From positions 25,078 through 89,077 of the IMG/VR virus record IMGVR_UViG_3300045988_129305: DNA of 64,000 bases; one strand, written 5' to 3'. Source of the stretch: a virus. Every line of letters begins with the position of its first letter. Within the stretch, counting starts at the first letter, position 1. Positions 4,695-62,076 of the stretch are shown here, one piece after another. A model generated the notes under the pieces. The model saw nothing but the letters and a program-made list of their open reading frames with translations. It had not been told where the DNA came from and searched no databases. Position numbers and translations under genes: made by a program.

Positions 4695-5093
4695 ATGAAG
4701 GAATTAGTACCAGAAAAGAGGTATCTCGAAGAATATGATGTTAATGTTATTTGTCATTTAACACCAGCTCAAATTGATGATATTGCAAAGACTGTTGCCA
4801 ATCTTAATACGTGGCTTGAGCGTGAGCAAATGATTTGTTATAAAATTCTATGCTATACGACAGATATAGGCGAAGAGAAAATTGAAGAGCTTGACCCCGA
4901 TATGATTGCTATGAGCGGTCTTTATCATGAGGTTAAAATGAACATACGTAATTCTTTTGATATTTATGCCGCCATTAAGCATTATGAGTCACCCGTCAGA
5001 ATGTTAGCTGATATAGCTCAAAATATGCCTGAATTGCTTGAACACCTTAAAGGTATAGATATTAAGGATGTTATAGGAAATGCCAACGTTTGA
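4695..5093 (+). CDS. hypothetical protein (tail assembly chaperone by position only)
   Basis: 132-aa ORF with AAGGAGA SD, lying between the tail-tube-like gene and the tape measure. Confidence 0.55.
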   Translation: MKELVPEKRYLEEYDVNVICHLTPAQIDDIAKTVANLNTWLEREQMICYKILCYTTDIGEEKIEELDPDMIAMSGLYHEVKMNIRNSFDIYAAIKHYESPVRMLADIAQNMPELLEHLKGIDIKDVIGNANV

Positions 5094-7113: not shown

Positions 7114-7409
7114 TTAATTAGTCAGAAATGATTGAGGCTGCAACTAAATAATTTGGTTGAGTATATGGCGACATATATAATGAATGGGGTGAATTGCTGG
7201 GAAGCCCTTAGAGTCTTACATACCGAAGTGTGACAATTGTAAGAATTGGGTAATCAGCAGCTAAGCCAATATTGAGTTATTGGAAAGTCCAACGACTAAG
7301 ATTGAAATAATATCTGTAGGATTCAAGTGAGTCCGAAGTGCTCCATATCTATTGATAAATAGATAAAGATATAGTCTAAACTTATGTGAAAATATAAGAG
7401 GTGTTTATA

Positions 7410-8216
7410 ATGAGAAATAATAAATTAAAAGAAATTCAAGCATGGTGTGAAGGGCACAATATAAAACCCTATAATATTCGCAATGTTGTTCGAGGTGGCA
7501 AGACAGAAATAAAACTCACTTGTTCCTGTAAAGAATGTGGAGAGCGATACGATATTATGTGGTGTAGTTTGAAAGTCCAGACCTATCCGGGGCTATGTAC
7601 TAAATGTGCGCATAAGCGCTCTCAAGAAGGTCGCAGACTGTCGGCTCAAAAGGTAATAAGCTTGTTTGAAAAGTATGGCTACAAAGTCCTTACGCCTGTT
7701 GATAGAATTAAACCGATTGGTAAACAGCAGCTTTATAATAGGTCTATTGTTACGATTCAAGATAAATATGGAACTACTTATGATATATGTTGGAACAATT
7801 TTCACAATAGATTACAGTATTATCTTGATATAAACGATGGTGGACATTGTGCTGAGGGTGATAGAGATTTAAGTTGTTTAGAGCAAAAAGTAGCTGATTA
7901 TTTAGACGAATTGTGTATAAGTTATAAGCGCGAATTTAAGTTTTCTGATTGTCGTGGCAATAAAAGAATGTTGCCTTTTGATTTTTGCCTGAATTATGAT
8001 AAACCTAATAGGTTATTAATCGAAGCTGATGGGGAGCGACATTATAAAGAATATTTTGTTGAATTGCGCAAATATGATAAAATAAAAGATTATTATTGCA
8101 ACTCTCATAATATTCCCTTACTTAGAATCCCTTATTGGGAGTTCGACGATGATACTTACAAACAAAGTATAGATAATTTTATAAACACTAATAGTAGTAA
8201 CGATACTATTGAATAA
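7410..8216 (+). CDS. intron-encoded homing endonuclease, Vsr/PD-(D/E)xK (EDxHD-like) type with N-terminal zinc finger
   Basis: ATG 7410 after AAGAGGTG. CSCKECG..CTKC zinc finger. The C-terminal PFDFCL..LLIEADGERHY..IPLLRIPYWE matches the Vsr/DUF559-like nuclease core. It sits 3' of the intron P7 motif and ends 6 nt before the proposed 3' splice site. Confidence 0.75.
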   Translation: MRNNKLKEIQAWCEGHNIKPYNIRNVVRGGKTEIKLTCSCKECGERYDIMWCSLKVQTYPGLCTKCAHKRSQEGRRLSAQKVISLFEKYGYKVLTPVDRIKPIGKQQLYNRSIVTIQDKYGTTYDICWNNFHNRLQYYLDINDGGHCAEGDRDLSCLEQKVADYLDELCISYKREFKFSDCRGNKRMLPFDFCLNYDKPNRLLIEADGERHYKEYFVELRKYDKIKDYYCNSHNIPLLRIPYWEFDDDTYKQSIDNFINTNSSNDTIE

Positions 8217-8222
8217 TGATTG

Positions 8223-11200
8223 GAATTTCGCAAGAACTCATTCAATGATGAAGATTCCGCGACTCTGGCGCAAGTAGCGACATTATACCAAAATGTTGCT
8301 GATGATGCGATATCTGCAAGTGATAGTGCAAGTATTATAATATCTCAAATGAAAGCGTTCAATATTCCTGCTGAGAACGCGATTCATATCATAGATGCAA
8401 TTAATGCCGTCAGCAATAATTTTGCCGTTTCGTCTACAGATGTTGCCACGGCTTTATCTAAAACTAGCTCTGCAATGGGCGTTTTAGGTAATGATTTTGA
8501 GTCAACTATAGGACTTGTCGTGGCTGGTACGGAAATTATGACCGGACAAGCCACAAAAGTGTCACGTGGACTTAGAACCATCGGCAACAACTTTGCAAAA
8601 GCCGCTAATGATGCAGGAGAAATTGAATATAAAGTTGGTGGCGCAACAAAATCTTTATCTCTTATGGATGAAACCACGGGAGATATGAAATCGACATTCC
8701 AGATATTCAAAGATTTGAAATCCGATTGGGACAATATGTCGAGTTCTGAGCAGCAATCTATAGCATTGGCTTATGCTGGTAAGAACCAGTTTGAAGTATT
8801 CGGTGCGGTTATGAATAACTTCCAAGCGGCTATAGATGCTGCTAATACGGCTTATGATTCACAAAAATCTGCAATGGATGAAAATGCCTCTTATATGGAA
8901 TCTATTGAGGCGAAATTACAAAATCTCAAAGCCGCATATGAGAATTTTGCATCCAATACAATTACAAAAGAATTTATCGGTTCAATATTAGATGCTGGCA
9001 CAAAATTACTCGAATTTGCTAACACTGATATGGGGCAAGCCGTTGCTAAAGCAGTATTATTTGGCGGTGCGATTACTGGTGTTACTGGTATTGCCGGTGA
9101 ATTTATTAGCAAAATAATTGGCATTGCATCTTCAGTTAAAAAAGCCACGGGTGGCGTAGAGGCTTTTCTGGGGATGGCCGCTGGCGGTAAGTGGACAGTC
9201 ATAGCGTTGGCTATAGGCGCTGTCGCGGCGGCTATTATTTTAATTGTAGACGCGATAAAAAATGCCGACAGCAAATTCGATAAATTCATGGGCGAATTTG
9301 ATAAGTCTAAGCAAAAGACAGAAGAGTATCAACAAAGCTTAGATGATACAAAGAAAAAGCTCGATGAATTAAATAATACACCCTATGCCGATAGAACATC
9401 TGAACAACAGCACGAAATAGAAGTTCTTCAAGATCAGATAGAGTATTATCAGCAACTTATAGACCTTGAAAAACAGAGACAAACTGAGGCTGCTATAGGT
9501 GCGTATCAAGAAGCTATTAAGGGCGGCGTTAAAATGGGCACCAAAGTTCATGGCGCAGACCGTAGTATCTATGGACAATATTTACAGTATGGCGATAGAG
9601 ACAGATTTAAGGGCTTTGATTTAACTGCTGAAGAAATTGCACGATTTGATGCTTTGGATGCGTTACCATCTAAATTTAGTAGCGTTCAAGCAGCGGCGGA
9701 AGCCTATGCTAAGGCATTGGGGCTCTCATGGGTAAACGCTGACGGCACGATTAAGTCTGTCGAAGATATGCAAAATGAGCTTGAAGATTTCGGCATTGTT
9801 ATAGATGATGTTGTTGCAGATTTAGAAACCTCTTCATCGGCGTTTCAGGAGCTTGCTGATAACATAAGCAAGGGTGCAAAACCTACTCAAGAACAATTAA
9901 ATCTTGCAAAGAGCTACATAGAATCAAATAAGCAAATAGCTGATGGTTTGCAAGCTAGATTAGAAAATGGTGATAAACTATCTGATGCTGAGTCGCAATG
10001 GTTATCAAATTATAATAATCTACTTAATGCTTACAAAGAGGGTCAGGATGCATTAGATAAATATAATAAATCGGTTGAAACCGCAGATAAAGCGTTGGCT
10101 AGTTTCCCCGACCACATGAAGAATAGTTCAAGTGCAATAGGAGAAGTCGCTAAGGCACTTGTTAATAATTCTGAATTAGGTATAACTTCTGTTAAGGGAT
10201 TAAAGACAGCGCTGTTAGATTTAGCTGCGGGGGACGCTATTGATTTATCTAAAATTGGCAATATTGATGATTTTATTGCCAAGTTGGTAGAAGCCGAAGG
10301 CATTAAATTTAGCGATAAAAATATTAATGTCGAAACAAACGCCGAAGAAGCTAAAAATCAGATAGAAGCAGTCAATGATAGTGTGGAAGATCAGAGCATG
10401 GATGTCCACATTAGTACAGTTGCGGAAGGTCACGAACTTGAAGGGGCATTACAAAATATTGCCGACTGGATAGATAAGATTAATGGCAAAACAGTTAAAG
10501 TAACGCTTGAAGCTGATGTTTCTGCGGCTAAAGAACAAATCAATTCAGTAACAAATGATATAAATAATATTGTTGCTGGTGTTGATGTTACTATAACGAC
10601 TAATGCGCCAGAGGCTAGAGCGCAAATTCAAGACGTTCAATCTGCGGCTGATGCATTATCTAATGTTAAACCTAAAGTAACTGTTAAAGCTAATATAACC
10701 TCTGCTTTAACAAACCTTAACACCATTAAGAACTATACCATACCAGACAAATATTTCTCTGTTGTTTGTTCCGGTGCTAGTGTTGCTATACAGAATCTTG
10801 CTACTATTAAACGTGGACTTGACCAGTTGCATGATAAAACTGTAACTGTTACGGTTAATTATAAGAAAACAGGTAAGTATGCAACTGGTACTAAATCGGC
10901 TCCGGGTGGATTAGCATTAATAAATGATGGCGCACCTGTTAATGGTTCTGCTGGTGAATTAGTCGTACATGATGGTGTTGGTCAAATTTACAATGATGGT
11001 AAAGAGACCGTCCAGCCAATACCTAAGGGCGCTAAAATTTATACAGCTAGACAAACCCAAGGCATTCTTAAAGACCGTGGCTTAACAGTGGATGATGTAG
11101 CCGAGAATCCCATCCCGGCTATGGCCAACGGCACTAAGAATAATCCTAAATACCCCGATAGGCGAAATGATCCGACTTATTCTGGTGTTACTACTCTTTA

Positions 11201-11852
11201 TGGCTCTGGCGAGGACTTAAAGAAGAATTTTGAGGAATGGCTAAAAGAAAAGAAACACTGGCTTAATATGGATGTTATCTCTGAAGCACAGTATTATCGT
11301 GATTTAGAGATAATGAATGAGCGATACTTAAAAAATCTTAGTGATGCTAAAGACGAATATTGGCAACATGAGGAAGAAATATATAAGTATCAAAATCAGT
11401 CCCTTGAAGATCAGATTAGGCTTGAAGAGAAATTAAGTGATTTAGCTAAAGCCAAAGAGAATAGGGTATATGCGCTTAGTGGCGGTCGTTTCCAGTATTT
11501 ACAGAATCTTGATGCTATAGCAAAAGCTCAAAGAGAAGTCGACCAGTTAACAGGTAAGTATGCTAATGGTACAACTAACGCAAGAGGTGGACTATCTTTA
11601 GTTGGCGAAAATGGACCTGAGATGCGGGTGCTTGGACATGGCGATGGTATAATCCCGGCTGAAGCAACAAAGAATCTCATGGCATTGTCAAGCCTTAATA
11701 TTAAAGATGCCCTGTCCAACATAGGACGAGCCATAGTGACTAACTACTCCTTTGATATTAGTCGGCTTGAATTACCGAGCGTTTCTAATGCTGGTGAGTT
11801 CTTAGATGGCTTAAAGAATCTTGCATATCAATATAGTTATGCAAGAGCATAA
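8223..11852 (+). CDS. tail tape measure protein, exon 2
   Basis: About 1209 codons. TP901-type TMP core (FRKNSFNDEDSATLAQVATLYQNVADDAISASDSASIIISQMKAF..VSSTDVATALSKTSS), a Gly/Ala-rich membrane-like segment and long coiled coils. The frame has a stop at 8217-8219 just upstream. Confidence 0.85.
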   Translation, partial: EFRKNSFNDEDSATLAQVATLYQNVADDAISASDSASIIISQMKAFNIPAENAIHIIDAINAVSNNFAVSSTDVATALSKTSSAMGVLGNDFESTIGLVVAGTEIMTGQATKVSRGLRTIGNNFAKAANDAGEIEYKVGGATKSLSLMDETTGDMKSTFQIFKDLKSDWDNMSSSEQQSIALAYAGKNQFEVFGAVMNNFQAAIDAANTAYDSQKSAMDENASYMESIEAKLQNLKAAYENFASNTITKEFIGSILDAGTKLLEFANTDMGQAVAKAVLFGGAITGVTGIAGEFISKIIGIASSVKKATGGVEAFLGMAAGGKWTVIALAIGAVAAAIILIVDAIKNADSKFDKFMGEFDKSKQKTEEYQQSLDDTKKKLDELNNTPYADRTSEQQHEIEVLQDQIEYYQQLIDLEKQRQTEAAIGAYQEAIKGGVKMGTKVHGADRSIYGQYLQYGDRDRFKGFDLTAEEIARFDALDALPSKFSSVQAAAEAYAKALGLSWVNADGTIKSVEDMQNELEDFGIVIDDVVADLETSSSAFQELADNISKGAKPTQEQLNLAKSYIESNKQIADGLQARLENGDKLSDAESQWLSNYNNLLNAYKEGQDALDKYNKSVETADKALASFPDHMKNSSSAIGEVAKALVNNSELGITSVKGLKTALLDLAAGDAIDLSKIGNIDDFIAKLVEAEGIKFSDKNINVETNAEEAKNQIEAVNDSVEDQSMDVHISTVAEGHELEGALQNIADWIDKINGKTVKVTLEADVSAAKEQINSVTNDINNIVAGVDVTITTNAPEARAQIQDVQSAADALSNVKPKVTVKANITSALTNLNTIKNYTIPDKYFSVVCSGASVAIQNLATIKRGLDQLHDKTVTVTVNYKKTGKYATGTKSAPGGLALINDGAPVNGSAGELVVHDGVGQIYNDGKETVQPIPKGAKIYTARQTQGILKDRGLTVDDVAENPIPAMANGTKNNPKYPDRRNDPTYSGVTTLYGSGEDLKKNFEEWLKEKKHWLNMDVISEAQYYRDLEIMNERYLKNLSDAKDEYWQHEEEIYKYQNQSLEDQIRLEEKLSDLAKAKENRVYALSGGRFQYLQNLDAIAKAQREVDQLTGKYANGTTNARGGLSLVGENGPEMRVLGHGDGIIPAEATKNLMALSSLNIKDALSNIGRAIVTNYSFDISRLELPSVSNAGEFLDGLKNLAYQYSYARA

Positions 11853-23747: not shown

Positions 23748-25640
23748 TTGATTACACTTGAAAGACCGGCATATTATGACTCAAAAAGATATAATGAATA
23801 TTGCGGATTAAGTACTGATGATAAAACGATCGTAAGCGCTTATAATGGCGATGAGTTCTATGAAATCAATACTGGTAAATATTACAAATATAATCAAGTT
23901 TCAAATGAATGGGTAGAACAACCTGAAGATACAGCGGCTATTGACACCGGATTACCTCCAATTACTGATGAAACAAGCGGACATTTTTTAAGTAATGATG
24001 GTAATGTTACTCATTGGCAAGCATTAGCATCGAGAAATTTTGTTATTCAATTAACAGAAAATGTCAATAATAAAACTTATACCGCCGATAAGACTTATGT
24101 TGAAATCAAATCGGCGTTTGATGCAAAAGAAAATTTAGTTGTTAGATTAAATAGTAGCGAATTTAGCTTGATGAATGTTGAGTTCGCTAATGAGAATGAA
24201 GCTGGTTTTACTTTTGGTTATACTGAGGTTAGATTAGATGGACAAGTTATTGAAACAAGGTCTATTCAATATACTCACAGCAATGGGGCAGATAATTGGT
24301 CTGATAGCGATGACACTGCCGATTTGTCTGAATATCTATCTTTGTCTGGCGGAATATTAAGTGGCCGGTTACATTTAGCCGACAATCCTACTGAAGATTT
24401 AGAGGCGGCCACTAAGTATTATGTGGATAACCACAACATGATTGTTCGCTTTACATCAGATGCGGTGGCAGGATTTAATGCAGATAAATCTATTCAAGAG
24501 ATCGTAGCCGCTTCTTTAGCGAAAAAATATATAAGTGGTGAACTTAATGGCGATGTATATGGCTTGACTTCTATATCGGCTACAGAAGTGGTGTTTACTA
24601 GAGTTGACGAAAATAAGGTGTCTACGATTAGCTATTTAAATGGCGCATGGTCTAAGTCTGAGCAAACATTATTGCCACTTAAAGGTGGCAAAATGGATGG
24701 CAATATCAACATGAATAGCAATTCTATTACAAGTATACAAAAATTACATGTTGACGGTTCTGCTCCGATTTATATTGGTTCTGTTATTGAACCGGGCATT
24801 AATGCCCCACGGCTGGTTGGCTCTACAGGCGGCTCAGCAGCATTTGTTAAAGCATCTTCTCAGAGTGAATATGTACCAGTTGCTGTTGGAACTCCAAGCG
24901 CACCAGATCACGCTGTTAATTTACGGCAATTAACCCAAGAAGTATTGGCAGATGCGCCTACGGCTGATGGTTGTATTGCTAATAAGAAATATGTTGATGA
25001 TTGTGTTGCTCGAAAAGTACCATTGGTAGCGGCTAATCCGGGTGAATTAAAGGCATATCTCCAAAATGGTACTAAGCCTGATGTTTGTTTAGTATCTGAT
25101 GCTGGTGGAGCACAATGTATAGCAAGATATACAAGTGATGGGCATTTAATTGATACTCACGCTCCTACGGGCGATAATCAATTAGCGAATAAAAAATATG
25201 TCGATGATAAATTAGCGGCATATAGTAATGTATCTGGCAGTTTACAAATAGCTGGCGATTTAACGGTAAATGGCTCTGCCGCTGTTATTAAAGCACCTGT
25301 TAATAATGTGGATATTCCAAATAAGGGCTATGTCGATACTCAGATTAATTCGGCTGTGGCAGACACAGTAAGGAAACAATCTATAGAAGTTGGAGCTAAT
25401 TCAAGTGTTGATGTTACTTTATCTAACGGCGTTTATTTAGTAACTACTTCAGATAATGCGCATGGTGGCTTAACTTGTGTAGCTGTTTATCCTGATGGCG
25501 AAACAATTACTGGTTTAGTCAATCTGAATGGTTGGAAATGCGAGAAAATAACTAGTGGTAAGGGCATTAATTTAACTAATGTCGTAGGCACAAGTATGAC
25601 TGTTTATATAACCTCAATAGGTGAGGGTACTTATAGATAA
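23748..25640 (+). CDS. tail fiber-like protein
   Basis: 630 aa, TTG start after AAGGTGAG. Fiber motifs LSLSGGILSGRLHLADNPTEDLEAATKYYVD, LPLKGGKMDGNINMNSNSI, and repeated (A/P)NKKYVDD. Confidence 0.75.
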   Translation: MITLERPAYYDSKRYNEYCGLSTDDKTIVSAYNGDEFYEINTGKYYKYNQVSNEWVEQPEDTAAIDTGLPPITDETSGHFLSNDGNVTHWQALASRNFVIQLTENVNNKTYTADKTYVEIKSAFDAKENLVVRLNSSEFSLMNVEFANENEAGFTFGYTEVRLDGQVIETRSIQYTHSNGADNWSDSDDTADLSEYLSLSGGILSGRLHLADNPTEDLEAATKYYVDNHNMIVRFTSDAVAGFNADKSIQEIVAASLAKKYISGELNGDVYGLTSISATEVVFTRVDENKVSTISYLNGAWSKSEQTLLPLKGGKMDGNINMNSNSITSIQKLHVDGSAPIYIGSVIEPGINAPRLVGSTGGSAAFVKASSQSEYVPVAVGTPSAPDHAVNLRQLTQEVLADAPTADGCIANKKYVDDCVARKVPLVAANPGELKAYLQNGTKPDVCLVSDAGGAQCIARYTSDGHLIDTHAPTGDNQLANKKYVDDKLAAYSNVSGSLQIAGDLTVNGSAAVIKAPVNNVDIPNKGYVDTQINSAVADTVRKQSIEVGANSSVDVTLSNGVYLVTTSDNAHGGLTCVAVYPDGETITGLVNLNGWKCEKITSGKGINLTNVVGTSMTVYITSIGEGTYR

Positions 25641-59216: not shown

Positions 59217-60068
59217 TTACCATAACTCCTTTCTCATAGCATTTTCAACATCATCTTCAGACGATTTAATATATCTATTAGTTGTCTGTATATTACTATG
59301 TCCAAGCATATCACGAATAGTAGCTACATCAACGCCATTTTTATTAGCAATAGTAGCACACGCAGCTCTAAGCCAATGAGGACTGATTTCTTTCCAATAA
59401 CTCAATCCAGCCCTATATGCTATCTGCTTAAGACTCTTACAAGCATTAGCCTCATTTATAACATTACCTTCAAACGATTCAAACAACATGGTATGCTGAC
59501 GACCATTGGCAATTTCATCGGCTATATACTTATCTATATACATCATTGTTTTCTCATTGATATATATTTTACGTTGCTTATTGCCTTTACCTGTAATGAT
59601 TATATCATTAGTTTTACCAGCTCTAAATTCTTCATATTGTTTCATCGTAATGCTATTCATTTCGGCAAAACGAAGCCCAGTTGAAGCCAATATAGATATT
59701 ATTGCTCTTGCTCTCGGCGATTCAGTAGCGGCTATCATCTTAGATACATCCTTAGCCGTCATGCACTGTTTGACTTTAGGATTATTTTTGAGCTTTTTAA
59801 CTTTATCAAATGGATTATCATCAACCATATCCATATCTTCAAGCCAAACCCAATAGCTCTTTATAGCACTGAGCCGAAGATTGATGCTACTTGCACTCAA
59901 GCCAGTCAATGTAGCCTTATAACCAATCAATTCGGCATTGCCGATTTCTTCTTCAGGCTTATCGCAGAACCGCATAAACTCATTTATGTACTTAACATAA
60001 TTTTTTATTGTCTGCTCAGATTTCTTATCGGCTCTAAGTGATTTAATATACTGGTCTATTCTATTCAT
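59217..60068 (-). CDS. int: tyrosine recombinase / integrase (XerC/D-like)
   Basis: 283 aa. SAM-like N-domain, ..GLRFAE.., HWLRAACAT and LGHSNIQTTNRYI (R-H-R-Y catalytic set). Confidence 0.9.
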   Translation of the reverse strand: MNRIDQYIKSLRADKKSEQTIKNYVKYINEFMRFCDKPEEEIGNAELIGYKATLTGLSASSINLRLSAIKSYWVWLEDMDMVDDNPFDKVKKLKNNPKVKQCMTAKDVSKMIAATESPRARAIISILASTGLRFAEMNSITMKQYEEFRAGKTNDIIITGKGNKQRKIYINEKTMMYIDKYIADEIANGRQHTMLFESFEGNVINEANACKSLKQIAYRAGLSYWKEISPHWLRAACATIANKNGVDVATIRDMLGHSNIQTTNRYIKSSEDDVENAMRKELW

Positions 60069-60100
60069 TTTGTTTACCTCCCGCTCTTTATCTTGGTTAT

Positions 60101-60129
60101 ACTATATCACAGATATTTTTATTTGTCAA
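60101..60129 (-). promoter_or_regulatory. sigma-A-type promoter upstream of int
   Basis: On the - strand: TTGACA (60129-60124), 17 nt ending CTGTGA, TATAGT (60106-60101). Confidence 0.6.
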
Positions 60130-60134
60130 TAACA

Positions 60135-60179
60135 AAATGAGCAAATCCCTAAATTTTTTCTTAGAAGATTTGCTCATTT
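60135..60179 (-). terminator. rho-independent terminator closing the tRNA/ncRNA unit
   Basis: 13-bp perfect stem AAATGAGCAAATC (60135-60147) / GATTTGCTCATTT (60167-60179). On the - strand it is followed by TTTTGTTATT. Confidence 0.7.
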
Positions 60180-60231
60180 ATGAAAAGAAAGGAGGTGAAC
60201 AATGAAAGCTTCCCCACAAGCCATCACCGAC

Positions 60232-60313
60232 TGGAACGAGAACGAGGAATCGAACCTCAAAAATTATATACTAGAGTTCCTATGACTTATATATAACCCA
60301 CACCAGTTCTCGC
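60232..60313 (-). ncRNA. tRNA-like element A (canonical acceptor/T-arm/CCA, non-canonical anticodon arm)
   Basis: 82 nt. GCGAGAA(C) pairs with (G)TTCTCGT, T-arm GAGG-TTCGATT-CCTC, 3' TCCA. The central region gives only a 6-bp TATATA/TATATA stem with a 17-nt interior. No 5-bp stem with a 7-nt loop could be drawn. Confidence 0.45.
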
Positions 60314-60319
60314 ATATAA

Positions 60320-60434
60320 GCTCCATAATCAGAATCGAACTGATTTCCTCTCTCGGACTGTCTGTTATCATTAAAGAGCGACTTTAATGTTTTCTCACGA
60401 CCAATTAACAAGTATGCCCCTTACACCAATGGAG
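60320..60434 (-). ncRNA. tRNA-like element B (T-arm and 6-bp acceptor, about 115 nt, 8-bp central hairpin)
   Basis: CTCCAT pairs with ATGGAG. T-arm ATCAG-TTCGATT-CTGAT. Central hairpin CATTAAAG-TCGCT-CTTTAATG. No encoded CCA. Too long and irregular for a standard tRNA. Confidence 0.3.
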
Positions 60435-60759
60435 ATAACGCTACACTATCGTAGTAGCCAACGCTCATTGTTGTTCATCTACGCCTCGAATAAGGCTGTT
60501 TAGAATCAGAGATTCGATATTTGGTTAGATGCCTCTTGCATGAGTAGCTTGAGGTTAATTAGTCAAATTTCATCCATTAATCGCAATTAAATAGTATTGA
60601 CTAACTGCATTTGGCAATTACTGACAGACCAGCTTTACACTTATCTGCCCTCGGTTTGGCTGTGGAGAGGATGCCCAACATCATACACACAACTGTCTTG
60701 GTCACTTTCGTTGCCAATCTTTAGCTTAACGGACTAAAGATGAATCTCAGTAGATACCG

Positions 60760-60834
60760 TGGCGGGGGCAATAGGACTCGAACCTATAATGTTGGAGTCA
60801 AATTCCAATATGTTACCAATTACATCATACCCCT
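60760..60834 (-). tRNA. tRNA-Gln (anticodon UUG)
   Basis: 75 nt with encoded CCA. D-arm ATGT/ACAT with AATTGGTA loop, anticodon arm TTGGA-ATTTGAC-TCCAA, T-arm ATAGG-TTCGAGT-CCTAT. Discriminator G73 and an unpaired A1.C72, both consistent with Gln identity. Confidence 0.8.
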
Positions 60835-61365
60835 ATAGTTATTTTTTTTGCCCCAACCCCATAAATCGAATAGGCCAATGGTGCGCCCAAACATCTACCG
60901 TTCTGAATTGCCTTTAAGCGCTATTAGCACATTCAACCGGATAGACAGCCTTTTATCTATACGCACGTTCCCAATATAAAATTAACTATTTATTTCTCTC
61001 TGTAAATATTAAATAGTTGATTTGTTCAGTGCTCTTGGCCTTCGAGCTATCCTATGAAGTTGCTGTTCCCCAACTAATAGATTCCTTCACGTGCAATCTC
61101 ACGGTATAGTCTTGGCGTGTTTTAAGTGCTTCTTCTAATTCGCATTCACTATACTAACATCAGCACTATTTTAATTAGCCGTTAAGCTAAGTAAAACCAA
61201 TCAAGGAAGGTAAACCATATTTTCTCTAACCTATACAGAAATATGGAAAGAGGTTTATCATGTCTCGCCTGATTTTGAGCGGATAGTTTTAAGCTTTACT
61301 ATCAAAACTCCTTGTTTTTACCGTTTATAGGGTCGTTAAAACAAGTCAAAATCACACAGTCCCTT
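60835..61365 (-). ncRNA. 531-nt ORF-free spacer, candidate large structured RNA (family unknown)
   Basis: Lies between tRNA-Leu and tRNA-Gln inside one promoter-to-terminator unit. No ORF of 60 aa or more on either strand apart from a tRNA-antisense artefact. Several 6-8-bp hairpins by eye (61214-61246, 61281-61304, 61310-61346). Confidence 0.35.
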
Positions 61366-61450
61366 TGGTGCGGAATATGGGACTCGAACCCATAAGCCTT
61401 ACGGCATCCGAGCTTAAATCGGATGTGTTTCCCAGTTTCACCAATTCCGC
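61366..61450 (-). tRNA. tRNA-Leu (anticodon UAA), class II
   Basis: 85 nt with encoded CCA. Acceptor GCGGAAT/ATTCCGC, anticodon arm TCCGA-TTTAAGC-TCGGA, long variable arm TGCCGTAAGGCTT, T-arm ATGGG-TTCGAGT-CCCAT. Confidence 0.9.
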
Positions 61451-61463
61451 TCATTTCATCGAT

Positions 61464-61492
61464 ATTATATCACACAATTTTTATTTTGTCAA
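61464..61492 (-). promoter_or_regulatory. consensus sigma-A promoter directly upstream of tRNA-Leu
   Basis: On the - strand: TTGACA (61492-61487), 17 nt ending TGTGA, TATAAT (61469-61464). The predicted start is about 7 nt before the tRNA 5' end. Confidence 0.75.
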
Positions 61493-61583
61493 GAGGAAAT
61501 TTTATTTTCCAGAACTTTTATTTCTCACTGTGCCATCCACCGCTTTATCATGACAAGAACTTTATTTCCTCTTGACATCATGC

Positions 61584-61612
61584 ATTATAACATATCAATT
61601 TTGGTTTGTCAA
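61584..61612 (-). promoter_or_regulatory. second consensus sigma-A promoter in tandem
   Basis: On the - strand: TTGACA (61612-61607), 17 nt, TATAAT (61589-61584). Confidence 0.7.
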
Positions 61613-61633
61613 GCATTATTTTTAGAAATTTTA

Positions 61634-61804
61634 TTAGCACCAATAATGTGTACTAATTTTGCCATATCTTTCTGGATGTAACCGATTATTCTCATAACTG
61701 TTATGCTTATCAACTATATAAATAAGCAGACAACATATAAACAATACCAGAATTGTAATCCCAAATATTGCCCCAAAAATTATTTCCATTGCTGTCGGTG
61801 CCAT
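61634..61804 (-). CDS. small membrane protein (56 aa, not in the track)
   Basis: ATG 61804 after AAGAAGGATGG. MAPTAMEIIFGAIFGITILVLFICCLLIYIV.. First gene after promoter 61835-61863. Confidence 0.5.
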   Translation of the reverse strand: MAPTAMEIIFGAIFGITILVLFICCLLIYIVDKHNSYENNRLHPERYGKISTHYWC

Positions 61805-61834
61805 TTAACCATCCTTCTTTACTTTGTTAATTGA

Positions 61835-61863
61835 ATTATATCACATCAAATTCAATTTGTCAA
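61835..61863 (-). promoter_or_regulatory. consensus sigma-A promoter
   Basis: On the - strand: TTGACA (61863-61858), 17 nt ending TGTGA, TATAAT (61840-61835). Confidence 0.7.
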
Positions 61864-61872
61864 TACTAAATT

Positions 61873-62076
61873 TTACATTCTTCCCACTATTTTATGTCGA
61901 GCTATATTTCTATATGATTCAACGGTATTGGCATTAAGTTGTTTAATCCGAATATCAGAATTTATAGCATCCAGTTTAAACCTATAATCTTTGTATTCAC
62001 CGCAAACACCATGGCATCCTACAGCTCGATTAGTGCAATTAGCGCACGGTATATTAAGCCCATATTTAGATTTCAT
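61873..62076 (-). CDS. Cys-rich small protein
   Basis: 67 aa, CANCTNRAVGCHGVCGEY. Confidence 0.55.
   Translation of the reverse strand: MKSKYGLNIPCANCTNRAVGCHGVCGEYKDYRFKLDAINSDIRIKQLNANTVESYRNIARHKIVGRM

Follow-up and report, generated by a model that had tools for sequence, protein, structure and literature searches.

A candidate small structured RNA made of exchangeable hairpins in the tRNA-Leu–tRNA-Gln spacer of a metagenomic phage

The 64,000 nucleotides (nt) analysed here, hereafter the window, are positions 25,078 to 89,077 of the IMG/VR record IMGVR_UViG_3300045988_129305 and belong to a phage genome, with genes for the tape measure, tail proteins, an endolysin, NrdD, a RecJ-like exonuclease, a DnaB-like helicase and the DNA polymerase III alpha subunit. 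The minus strand carries a tRNA-Leu(UAA) gene, a spacer of 531 nt (60835-61365) and a tRNA-Gln(UUG) gene, in this order of transcription. An initial annotation had proposed that the whole spacer might be one large ornate non-coding RNA (ncRNA) of the ROOL/GOLLD kind. Comparison with related loci indicates that the 531 nt are a composite and not one conserved RNA, since only 169 nt and 49 nt recur in relatives and 313 nt have no homolog in the fetched loci, and that the conserved core of 169 nt next to tRNA-Leu (61365-61197) is a candidate new small RNA family in the niche known from ROOL and GOLLD.

The description of the spacer as flanked by tRNAs and devoid of an open reading frame (ORF) was borne out by ARAGORN, Rfam and an ORF scan; the spacer holds no ORF of at least 60 aa, and the small ORFs of up to 52 aa lie within segments without homologs or have a reading that is altered where stems covary. 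No pseudo-tRNA or tmRNA was detected within 61365-60835 by ARAGORN, at the default and the 80% threshold, or by the Rfam tRNA model. The strong transcription unit of the initial annotation is also real as a sequence feature, as three sigma-70 consensus promoters (12/12 matches, with an extended -10 TG) occur on the minus strand at 61863-61835, 61612-61584 and 61492-61464. The last of these, P3, ends 14 nt ahead of tRNA-Leu, with a predicted start about 6-7 nt ahead of it, is kept in the relatives L001 and L002, and would drive a tRNA/ncRNA operon in which the spacer is co-transcribed with the tRNAs. The terminator scan predicted no terminator-like site in the spacer, in tRNA-Gln or in the next 500 nt, and its sole minus-strand site lies far downstream, at 60259-60243. 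A hairpin GAGCAAAUC...GAUUUGCUC followed by AUUUUGUU, at about 60175-60135 on the minus strand and just ahead of the integrase promoter, is where the tRNA/ncRNA transcription unit likely ends; its loop of about 19 nt let it escape the scan. The integrase promoter (11/12, 60129-60101) precedes a tyrosine integrase gene at 60068..59217.

Relatives were obtained by integrase-anchored searches, and homolog scans covered 40-odd fetched loci, given here by L numbers. The window from 60000 to 61700 is 100% identical to the ENA contig ERZ1749067 NODE_113 (89,061 bp), which was reached via an exact integrase protein match. No integrase relative was found among 185,579 GTDB genomes, and BLASTN of 2 kb against 50,697 GenBank phage records gave matches to tRNAs alone. 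A Firmicutes host is only suggested, the low GC content, the extended -10 promoters and the encoded CCA being all that points there. The integrases of the relatives are 95-97% (L001/L002/L008, L004, L010-L019), 86% (L005), 60-61% (L006, L021, L022) and 46% (L023-L029) identical to that of the window. The layout of tRNA-Leu(UAA or CAA), spacer and tRNA-Gln(UUG) is kept in L010 (246 nt), L023 (304), L004 (363), L006 (400), L021 (405) and L025 (430), and thus recurs at integrase identities of 97%, 61%, 60% and 46% with spacers of 246-531 nt.

Within this layout the sequence of the spacer is a mosaic. Between the window and L001/L002, the stretch 61306-61197 is about 98% identical and 61022-60974 is 92% identical; the tRNA-Leu itself, 61196-61023 and all of 60973-60563, tRNA-Gln included, are replaced or absent. 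The only segments common to the window and its relatives are the core and the 49-nt hairpin M2. The segment of 174 nt that separates them is missing in L001/L002/L004/L008/L010-19, where the core directly adjoins M2; from this arrangement in L002, L004 and L010 it would follow that 61196-61023 is an insertion specific to the lineage of the window. Neither this segment nor the 139 nt ahead of tRNA-Gln gave an nhmmer homolog in the fetched loci or elsewhere in the window, and together they make up 59% of the spacer. M2 is 92-94% identical in L002, L004, L010 and L008. Its predicted fold is weak (-4.7 kcal/mol, z=-1.43) and in L010 it stands 7 nt ahead of tRNA-Gln, so that an efficient terminator is unlikely.

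Table 1. Features of the tRNA-Leu–tRNA-Gln region of the window, from the promoter to tRNA-Gln.
Feature	Coordinates	Strand	Description
Promoter P3	61464..61492	-	TTGACA-17-TATAAT, TG extended -10; 12/12 consensus match
tRNA-Leu(UAA)	61450..61366	-	ARAGORN and Rfam (tRNA, 56.3 bits); CCA encoded; fixes the 5' boundary of the spacer RNA
Conserved core, 169 nt	61197..61365	-	HA, H2, H3, CU tract, HB, CU-rich tail; from alignments
Hairpin HA, type B	61311..61345	-	CUUGUUUU[AACGACCCUAUAAACGGUA]AAAACAAG; loop motif AACGACNCNAYAAACGG
Hairpin H2	61282..61303	-	GAUAGU[AAAGCUUAAA]ACUAUC; 6-bp stem, conserved 10-nt loop
Weak hairpin H3	61266..61281	-	CGCU[CAAAAUCA]GGCG; proposed by eye
CU tract	61245..61253	-	CCUCUUUCC; directly 5' of HB, overlapping its first two pairs
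Hairpin HB	61215..61246	-	CCAUAUUUCU G UAUAGGUUAG AGAAAAUAUGG; bulge and asymmetric conserved loop
CU-rich 3' tail, anti-Shine-Dalgarno-like	61203..61214	-	UUUACCUUCCUU; conserved in most members
Orphan insertion, 174 nt, between core and M2	61023..61196	-	No ORF, no homolog; minimum free energy z=-1.56
M2, AT-rich hairpin, 49 nt	60974..61022	-	AACUAUUUA...UAAAUAGUU then AAUUUUAUAU; 9-bp perfect inverted repeat
Orphan segment, 139 nt, ahead of tRNA-Gln	60835..60973	-	No homolog; minimum free energy z=-0.67 (minus strand), +0.72 (plus strand)
tRNA-Gln(UUG)	60834..60760	-	ARAGORN and Rfam (tRNA, 56.9 bits); 5' end (RNase P site) fixes the 3' boundary of the spacer RNA

The best-supported element of the core, as judged from the alignments, is the hairpin H2 (Table 1), whose loop has 10-11 nt over the variants, with positions 3-10 reading RRSCYKNAAA. 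The stem of the window, GAUAGU/ACUAUC, is replaced elsewhere by GGCGAU/AUCGCU, CGCGAU/AUCGUG, GUAGGU/GCCUAC or AUGGGU/GCCCAU. Over seven variants, a count that includes the rows of L010 and L040, which have the stem of the window and differ only in the loop, pairing is kept in 42 of 42 cells and five of the six pairs are altered on both sides. The covariation score of 1.135 compares with 0.411 ± 0.093 in shuffles, none of the 500 shuffles reaching it, and pairing falls to 23-57% when the partner columns are slid; the covariation of H2 is by these comparisons real. Moreover, the G·U pairs found in H2 of L006, L021 and L037-43 would turn into C·A mismatches if the opposite strand were read, and therefore the RNA strand is taken to be the tRNA strand.

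Pairing in the hairpin HB is complete (100%) over 11 sequences; seven of its pairs are invariant and three adjacent ones are swapped between AUA/UAU and UCG/CGA. The ORF that overlaps HB changes its sequence along with these compensatory substitutions and is thus not coding. HA occurs in two forms. The loop motif of type B is common to the window and L004/L023/L025, in which the stem is CCACUU/AAGUGG, only two stem variants being known, and the other relatives carry a type-A HA, GGUUUGUUGACCAYUGUUUG...CAAAUCAAUGG. The distal hairpins of HA differ in each lineage and are all able to pair; they are given little weight because stems of 3-5 bp are expected by chance in 30-40 nt. H3 is poorly supported in divergent members, and a C to U change in L002 gives a G·U pair. 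A closing helix, 5' AAGGGA / 3' UUCCUU, is possible in four type-B 5' sequences and absent from type A. A hammerhead-like CUGAUGAG in type-B relatives was dropped, as it had no Rfam ribozyme match.

A covariance model of H2, H3 and HB, termed R1, covers the 3' 117 nt of the core from H2 through the CU-rich tail. It has a single match in the 64-kb window (61313..61193, 154 bits) and one in each relative, always in the Leu-Gln spacer. In the alignment fitted by the model 94.4% of cells are paired, compared with 77.7% for shuffles, a figure to be read with the bias of that alignment toward the structure it was fitted to. RNAalifold on MAFFT alignments recovered only HB and the invariant base stem of HA, and lost H2 because of a misalignment by one column. 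HA, H2 and HB were not found in L030, L031, L034 and L036 (39-45% integrase identity), which carry tRNAs and promoter-plus-noncoding units. Scans with the exact HB pattern gave only two contigs in IMG/VR, both already in the set, one more locus of the same type in JGI metagenomes, and no match in GTDB genomes; two further JGI matches, L007 and L009, were discarded as chance, their stems being non-complementary. The core family is absent from Rfam 15. Some 8,500 candidate structured RNAs drawn from IMG/VR are listed in a published catalogue (PMC10690425); the module of HA and H2 might already be within it, so that the newness of the family is relative to Rfam 15.

The search for known families was made with the 4227 models of Rfam 15, at gathering thresholds across the window and at E<=10 on both strands of 60300-62000. 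At the latter threshold only the two tRNAs and chance-level CopA (E=3.2) and snoZ163 (E=3.8) were found in that region. No covariance-model match to ROOL (RF03087), GOLLD (RF01998), HEARO, OLE or raiA, the models for which the initial annotation had recommended a search, was obtained in the window or at the locus, at gathering score or at E<=10; RAGATH-33 (RF03102) was absent from the window at all thresholds used, and the Rfam group I intron model (Intron_gpI) had no match in the spacer at E<=10. The same search of 13 related loci, at E<=0.1 and E<=0.5, gave no match to the spacer modules. The local hairpins noticed by eye are present, but the spacer as a whole does not stand out clearly in stability from dinucleotide shuffles, which come close to its folding energy: the minimum free energy is -126.5 kcal/mol against -116.9 ± 5.7 (z=-1.70), with 4 of 100 shuffles equally good and z=-1.88 for the opposite strand. 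The minus-strand z values of its sub-segments are -1.67 (61365-61197), -1.56 (61196-61023), -1.43 (61022-60974) and -0.67 (60973-60835). A long-range helix GAUUUUGA/UCAAAAUC, from the minimum free energy fold of the window, was rejected, as it is not kept in L010, L002 and L006.

A single large ornate RNA using all 531 nt, whether of the ROOL/GOLLD class or new, is therefore largely refuted and retains hardly any probability. Its size and its setting in a phage tRNA island match the published descriptions of ROOL and GOLLD (PMC12286853, PMC5737381), and this part of the earlier proposal stands; the assignment to that class does not, given the absence of any Rfam match at E<=10, the homolog-less 59% of the spacer, the 246 nt that suffice in close relatives, and z=-1.7. 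The fallback of a new family is supported for the modular core of about 170 nt, which recurs between tRNA-Leu and tRNA-Gln with compensatory changes in H2 and HB; it does not extend to the full 531 nt, neither orphan segment having a homolog in the fetched loci. Folding energy alone does not single out the spacer; the case for part of it being a real RNA comes from the comparison with relatives.

Two CU-rich tracts flank HB. The first, CCUCUUUCC, is invariant in every HB-bearing member of the family and is predicted to be single-stranded. The second, the 3' tail, reads UUUACCUUCCUU or UUUACCUCCAUU in most members and UUUACCUCCUU in L040, with the general form UUUACCU(U)CC; the motif UUUACCUCC/UUUACCUUCC resembles an anti-Shine-Dalgarno (anti-SD) tail and is complementary to ribosome-binding sites of the GGAGG type. 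A duplex scan of both window strands gave, as the best ribosome-binding-site partner of the tail, that of the integrase (GGGAGGUAAAC, 60094..), with -17.7 kcal/mol and 11 contiguous pairs.

On these data we tentatively favour, at somewhat short of an even chance, the explanation that the first 169 nt of the spacer are a modular small structured RNA of about 170 nt, released from the tRNA operon and acting in trans, the rest being filler. The family would reside in metagenomic phages of roughly 65-107 kb, between tRNA-Leu(UAA/CAA) and tRNA-Gln(UUG) and upstream of a tyrosine integrase. It would be transcribed together with the tRNAs from a consensus promoter of the sigma-A type, after which RNase Z or exonucleases would trim the 3' end of tRNA-Leu and RNase P would cut at the 5' end of tRNA-Gln, freeing the small RNA. 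The product is pictured as a row of short hairpins, HA, H2, H3 and HB, whose loops are conserved and whose stems are exchangeable; its anti-SD-like tracts may pair with ribosome-binding sites in trans, or its loops may be offered to a protein. The remaining 362 nt consist of the weak conserved hairpin M2 and the two lineage-specific insertions, and these insertions would be passengers in a recombination hot spot and outside any large fold.

A number of observations weigh against this explanation. The base stem of type-A HA is invariant and hence uninformative for covariation, the compensatory swap in HB is a single event with two stem variants only, and sequence diversity among the aligned members is low. 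The H2 alignment was built by eye and the model alignment was fitted to the structure, both of which inflate the pair counts, and the folding energy of the spacer is not significantly better than that of shuffles. The type-B module of L004 is closely similar to that of L023, the integrases of these phages being 97% and 46% identical to that of the window; modules are thus exchanged horizontally, high identity may reflect recent transfer rather than selection, and conservation is on this account not clean evidence of selection. As to the mechanism, the CU-rich tail is absent in L006/L021, and in a cross-locus duplex matrix the tail paired with the integrase site of its own locus no better than with those of other loci. 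Specific target pairing of the tail is not supported, and in view of the missing locus-specific matching and of its absence from two members the motif is treated as a generic anti-SD-like seed.

The hairpins could instead be a cis-acting part of the precursor, which only folds, processes or stabilises the tRNA transcript or modulates read-through to tRNA-Gln and the integrase, no free RNA being made. The element is always embedded between tRNAs, M2 resembles a weak hairpin with a U-run just ahead of tRNA-Gln, thermodynamic stability is modest, and modules are gained and lost among near-identical phages, all of which fits such a role. However, other tRNAs in the same arrays lie only 3-20 nt apart (in L023, 2158/2162 and 2625/2631), and a long structured spacer is therefore not needed for processing; the loops of H2 and HB, kept while the stems change, also argue for sequence-specific recognition over generic structure. 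We regard this alternative as unlikely, if still the most serious competitor. Somewhat less probable again is that the spacer is evolutionary debris of a recombination hot spot, made of decayed tRNAs, gene fragments and junctions and shared through recent ancestry or transfer. Extreme mosaicism, the tRNA-like relics downstream at 60412-60320 and 60313-60232, the match of the block ins3 (60439-60318) to a sequence called as a 125-aa gene in L023, and the two window-only segments without relatives are in keeping with it, and for the 313 orphan nt it is probably correct. It accounts neither for the compensatory substitutions seen in H2 as well as in HB nor for the retention of the same module at one position beside tRNA-Leu, both in phages whose integrases are 46% identical and in IMG/VR contigs that are unrelated; relaxed ARAGORN thresholds revealed no pseudo-tRNA in the spacer.

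An element acting at the level of DNA, with the imperfect palindromes HB and M2 serving as operators or as integrase/excisionase arm sites near attP, would account for the position about 0.8-1.3 kb upstream of a tyrosine integrase and for the 9-bp perfect inverted repeat of M2, and symmetric changes in half-sites could imitate covariation. The strand specificity of the G·U pairs in H2, the bulge of HB with its asymmetric conserved loop, and the occurrence of modules far from any integrase, inside the tRNA arrays of L037-L043, make it improbable. The encoding of one or more small peptides can be given next to no credence: short ORFs exist on both strands, for example a plus-strand MSRLILSG preceded by the Shine-Dalgarno-like GGAAAGAGG antisense to the CU tract, but neither length nor sequence is kept (8 aa in L010, 3 aa in L006, 22 aa in L023), the stem swaps alter the minus-strand ORF that spans HB, and no ORF reaches 60 aa.

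The small structured RNA favoured here may be set beside several known systems. ROOL and GOLLD are ncRNAs of phages and prophages that lie in or beside tRNA islands and are probably co-transcribed with the tRNAs (PMC12286853, PMC5737381). The spacer of the window is likewise phage-borne with a tRNA on either side, but ROOL and GOLLD have roughly 580 nt and more than 800 nt, compared with about 170 conserved nt here (up to about 300 nt in type-B relatives), and their large pseudoknotted fold contrasts with short, independently exchangeable hairpins that give no sign of a multimeric architecture. A ROOL RNA would be expected to conserve roughly 500-600 nt as one complex fold, whereas only 169 + 49 nt are common to the relatives of the window.

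The tRNA cluster of phage T4 contains the small stable non-tRNA RNAs species 1 and 2 (rnaD/rnaC), which are co-transcribed with it and released by the tRNA-processing machinery. These are the closest analogue of the probable mode of action of the spacer RNA, with the difference that T4 belongs to another host lineage and that the RNA described here is modular and highly mosaic among close relatives; no kinship in sequence or structure is expected. Small RNAs of the RsaE/RoxS type in Firmicutes act through C/U-rich seeds, and the 3' end of 16S rRNA consists of helix 45 and the anti-SD sequence ...GGAUCACCUCCUUA. The core resembles both in having predicted single-stranded CU-rich tracts beside a hairpin; the likeness is one of motif. 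The tail is absent in two members, and target-specific co-variation was not seen. It is tempting to speculate that HB and the tail (...GG-UUUA-CCU(U)CCUU) form a mass-produced, tRNA-processed phage mimic of the 16S rRNA 3' end (helix 45 with its anti-SD tail), within a 1.3-kb unit that is an array of swappable cassettes, but we give this only a slim chance. Such a mimic would titrate Shine-Dalgarno-led mRNAs or a reader of the 16S 3' end (bS21, IF3, KsgA-like enzymes), or would gate translation of the integrase, and the tRNA-punctuated cassettes of the unit (HA-H2, HB, the module after tRNA-Gln, RAGATH-33, tRNA-like elements) would be swapped like accessory protein genes.

Phage tRNA islands are already known for enigmatic ncRNAs such as GOLLD, ROOL and the small stable RNAs of T4, to which the present locus adds one that is considerably smaller and simpler. 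Its hairpins are short and have conserved loops, its modules are clearly delimited by tRNA processing sites, and natural variants exist with fewer or additional modules; should the RNA prove real, its small size and modular build would make genetic and biochemical dissection far easier than for ornate RNAs of 600-800 nt, and the anti-SD-like tracts provide a concrete testable hypothesis. It also follows that a long spacer between phage tRNAs is not to be taken as one RNA without comparative data.

The modules are separable, as was found when the type-A HA pattern was used to scan IMG/VR. This gave seven more contigs, L037-L043, with lengths of 67-91 kb; HB is absent from them, and HA-H2 stands between the 3' CCA of a tRNA, which it directly adjoins, and a second tRNA or tRNA-like element. 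In L041 and L042 the module is sandwiched by two tRNA or tRNA-like elements, with an interval of about 112 nt in L041, where both boundaries were called; this placement suggests the arrangement that tRNA-punctuated processing would require. L040 carries HA, an H2 like that of the window and a CU-rich tract (…CUUCCUUUCUGUACCUCCUAACUUUACCUCCUUCU…), then a terminator and the integrase. RAGATH-33 was found in the arrays of relatives at L023 3515-3635, L025 2272-2392 and L037 2485-2373 (122-140 bits, above the gathering score), with the integrase a few hundred nt downstream in L023 and L025. This RNA is unrelated to HA/H2/HB in sequence and structure but lies in the same tRNA/ncRNA arrays of related phages, which therefore carry several kinds of small structured RNA. 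Taken together, these comparisons suggest an array in which small RNA modules, punctuated by tRNAs, can be exchanged.

The 197 nt after tRNA-Gln (60759-60563, minus strand) have a homolog (E=3e-36) in L040 at 9208-9036, between a tRNA-Ser-like gene and tRNA-Lys, and constitute a further mobile non-coding module of such arrays that matches no Rfam family. Upstream, on the minus strand of 61863-61464, the transcript from the second promoter starts with UGUCAAGAGGAAAU, the inverted-repeat partner of AUUUCCUCUUGACA, which lies at the third promoter's -35; the repeats enclose about 70 nt that are wholly different among the window, L002 and L010, and this block looks like a further swappable non-coding cassette.

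A short hairpin motif, CUACUACGAUAGUGUAGC, stands at module junctions, twice in L004 (4800-4822 and 5030-5054) and once in the window (60464-60440, minus strand), where it directly precedes the window-specific 122-nt block ins3 (60439-60318, minus strand), and could mark points of recombination or insertion. Relaxed ARAGORN calls a tRNA-like 'Ala(cgc)' in ins3 at 60412-60320. Homologs of the block (E ~5e-10) occur in L023 (3249-3368), L025, L027 and L028, for which the gene caller gave the 125-aa ORF, without a Pfam domain; either this ORF is spurious or the block is a gene fragment.

The tRNA-like element at 60313-60232 (minus strand, GCGAGAA...UUCUCGU-U-CCA) is called by ARAGORN as (Leu, tag) at the relaxed threshold only, and its homolog in L004, 95% identical, is called at default. 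Its position is taken by tRNA-Thr in L005 and by tRNA-Gln in L010/L006, all ahead of a conserved CCAGUCGGUGAUGGCUUG, and the element with CCAGUCGGUGAUGGCUUG may be an attP or a recombination junction beside the integrase. At the position of the canonical tRNA-Leu of the window, L004 (4215-4300) and L002 (about 4870-4955) have genes resembling tRNA-Leu(UAA), in which the acceptor and anticodon arms are intact and the T-loop has 6 nt (GGUCGAAC); these genes were missed by ARAGORN and by the Rfam tRNA model.

Antisense to the end of the tRNA unit, the plus strand contains an ORF of 27 aa (60202-60285) with a strong Shine-Dalgarno sequence (AAAGGAGGUGAACA-AUG), the first 11 codons of which (MKAxPQAITDW) are kept in L010, where a stop follows 14 aa. 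Elsewhere in the window, its sole group I intron (Rfam RF00028, 79.6 bits, E=1.3e-18) lies on the plus strand at 7136-7398, just upstream of an ORF at 7401-8216 (271 aa, no Pfam match) that is followed by the tape-measure gene at 8220-11852. The best PHROG match of the latter, phrog_4211, starts at profile position 660, and for this reason the tape-measure gene is possibly split by the intron.

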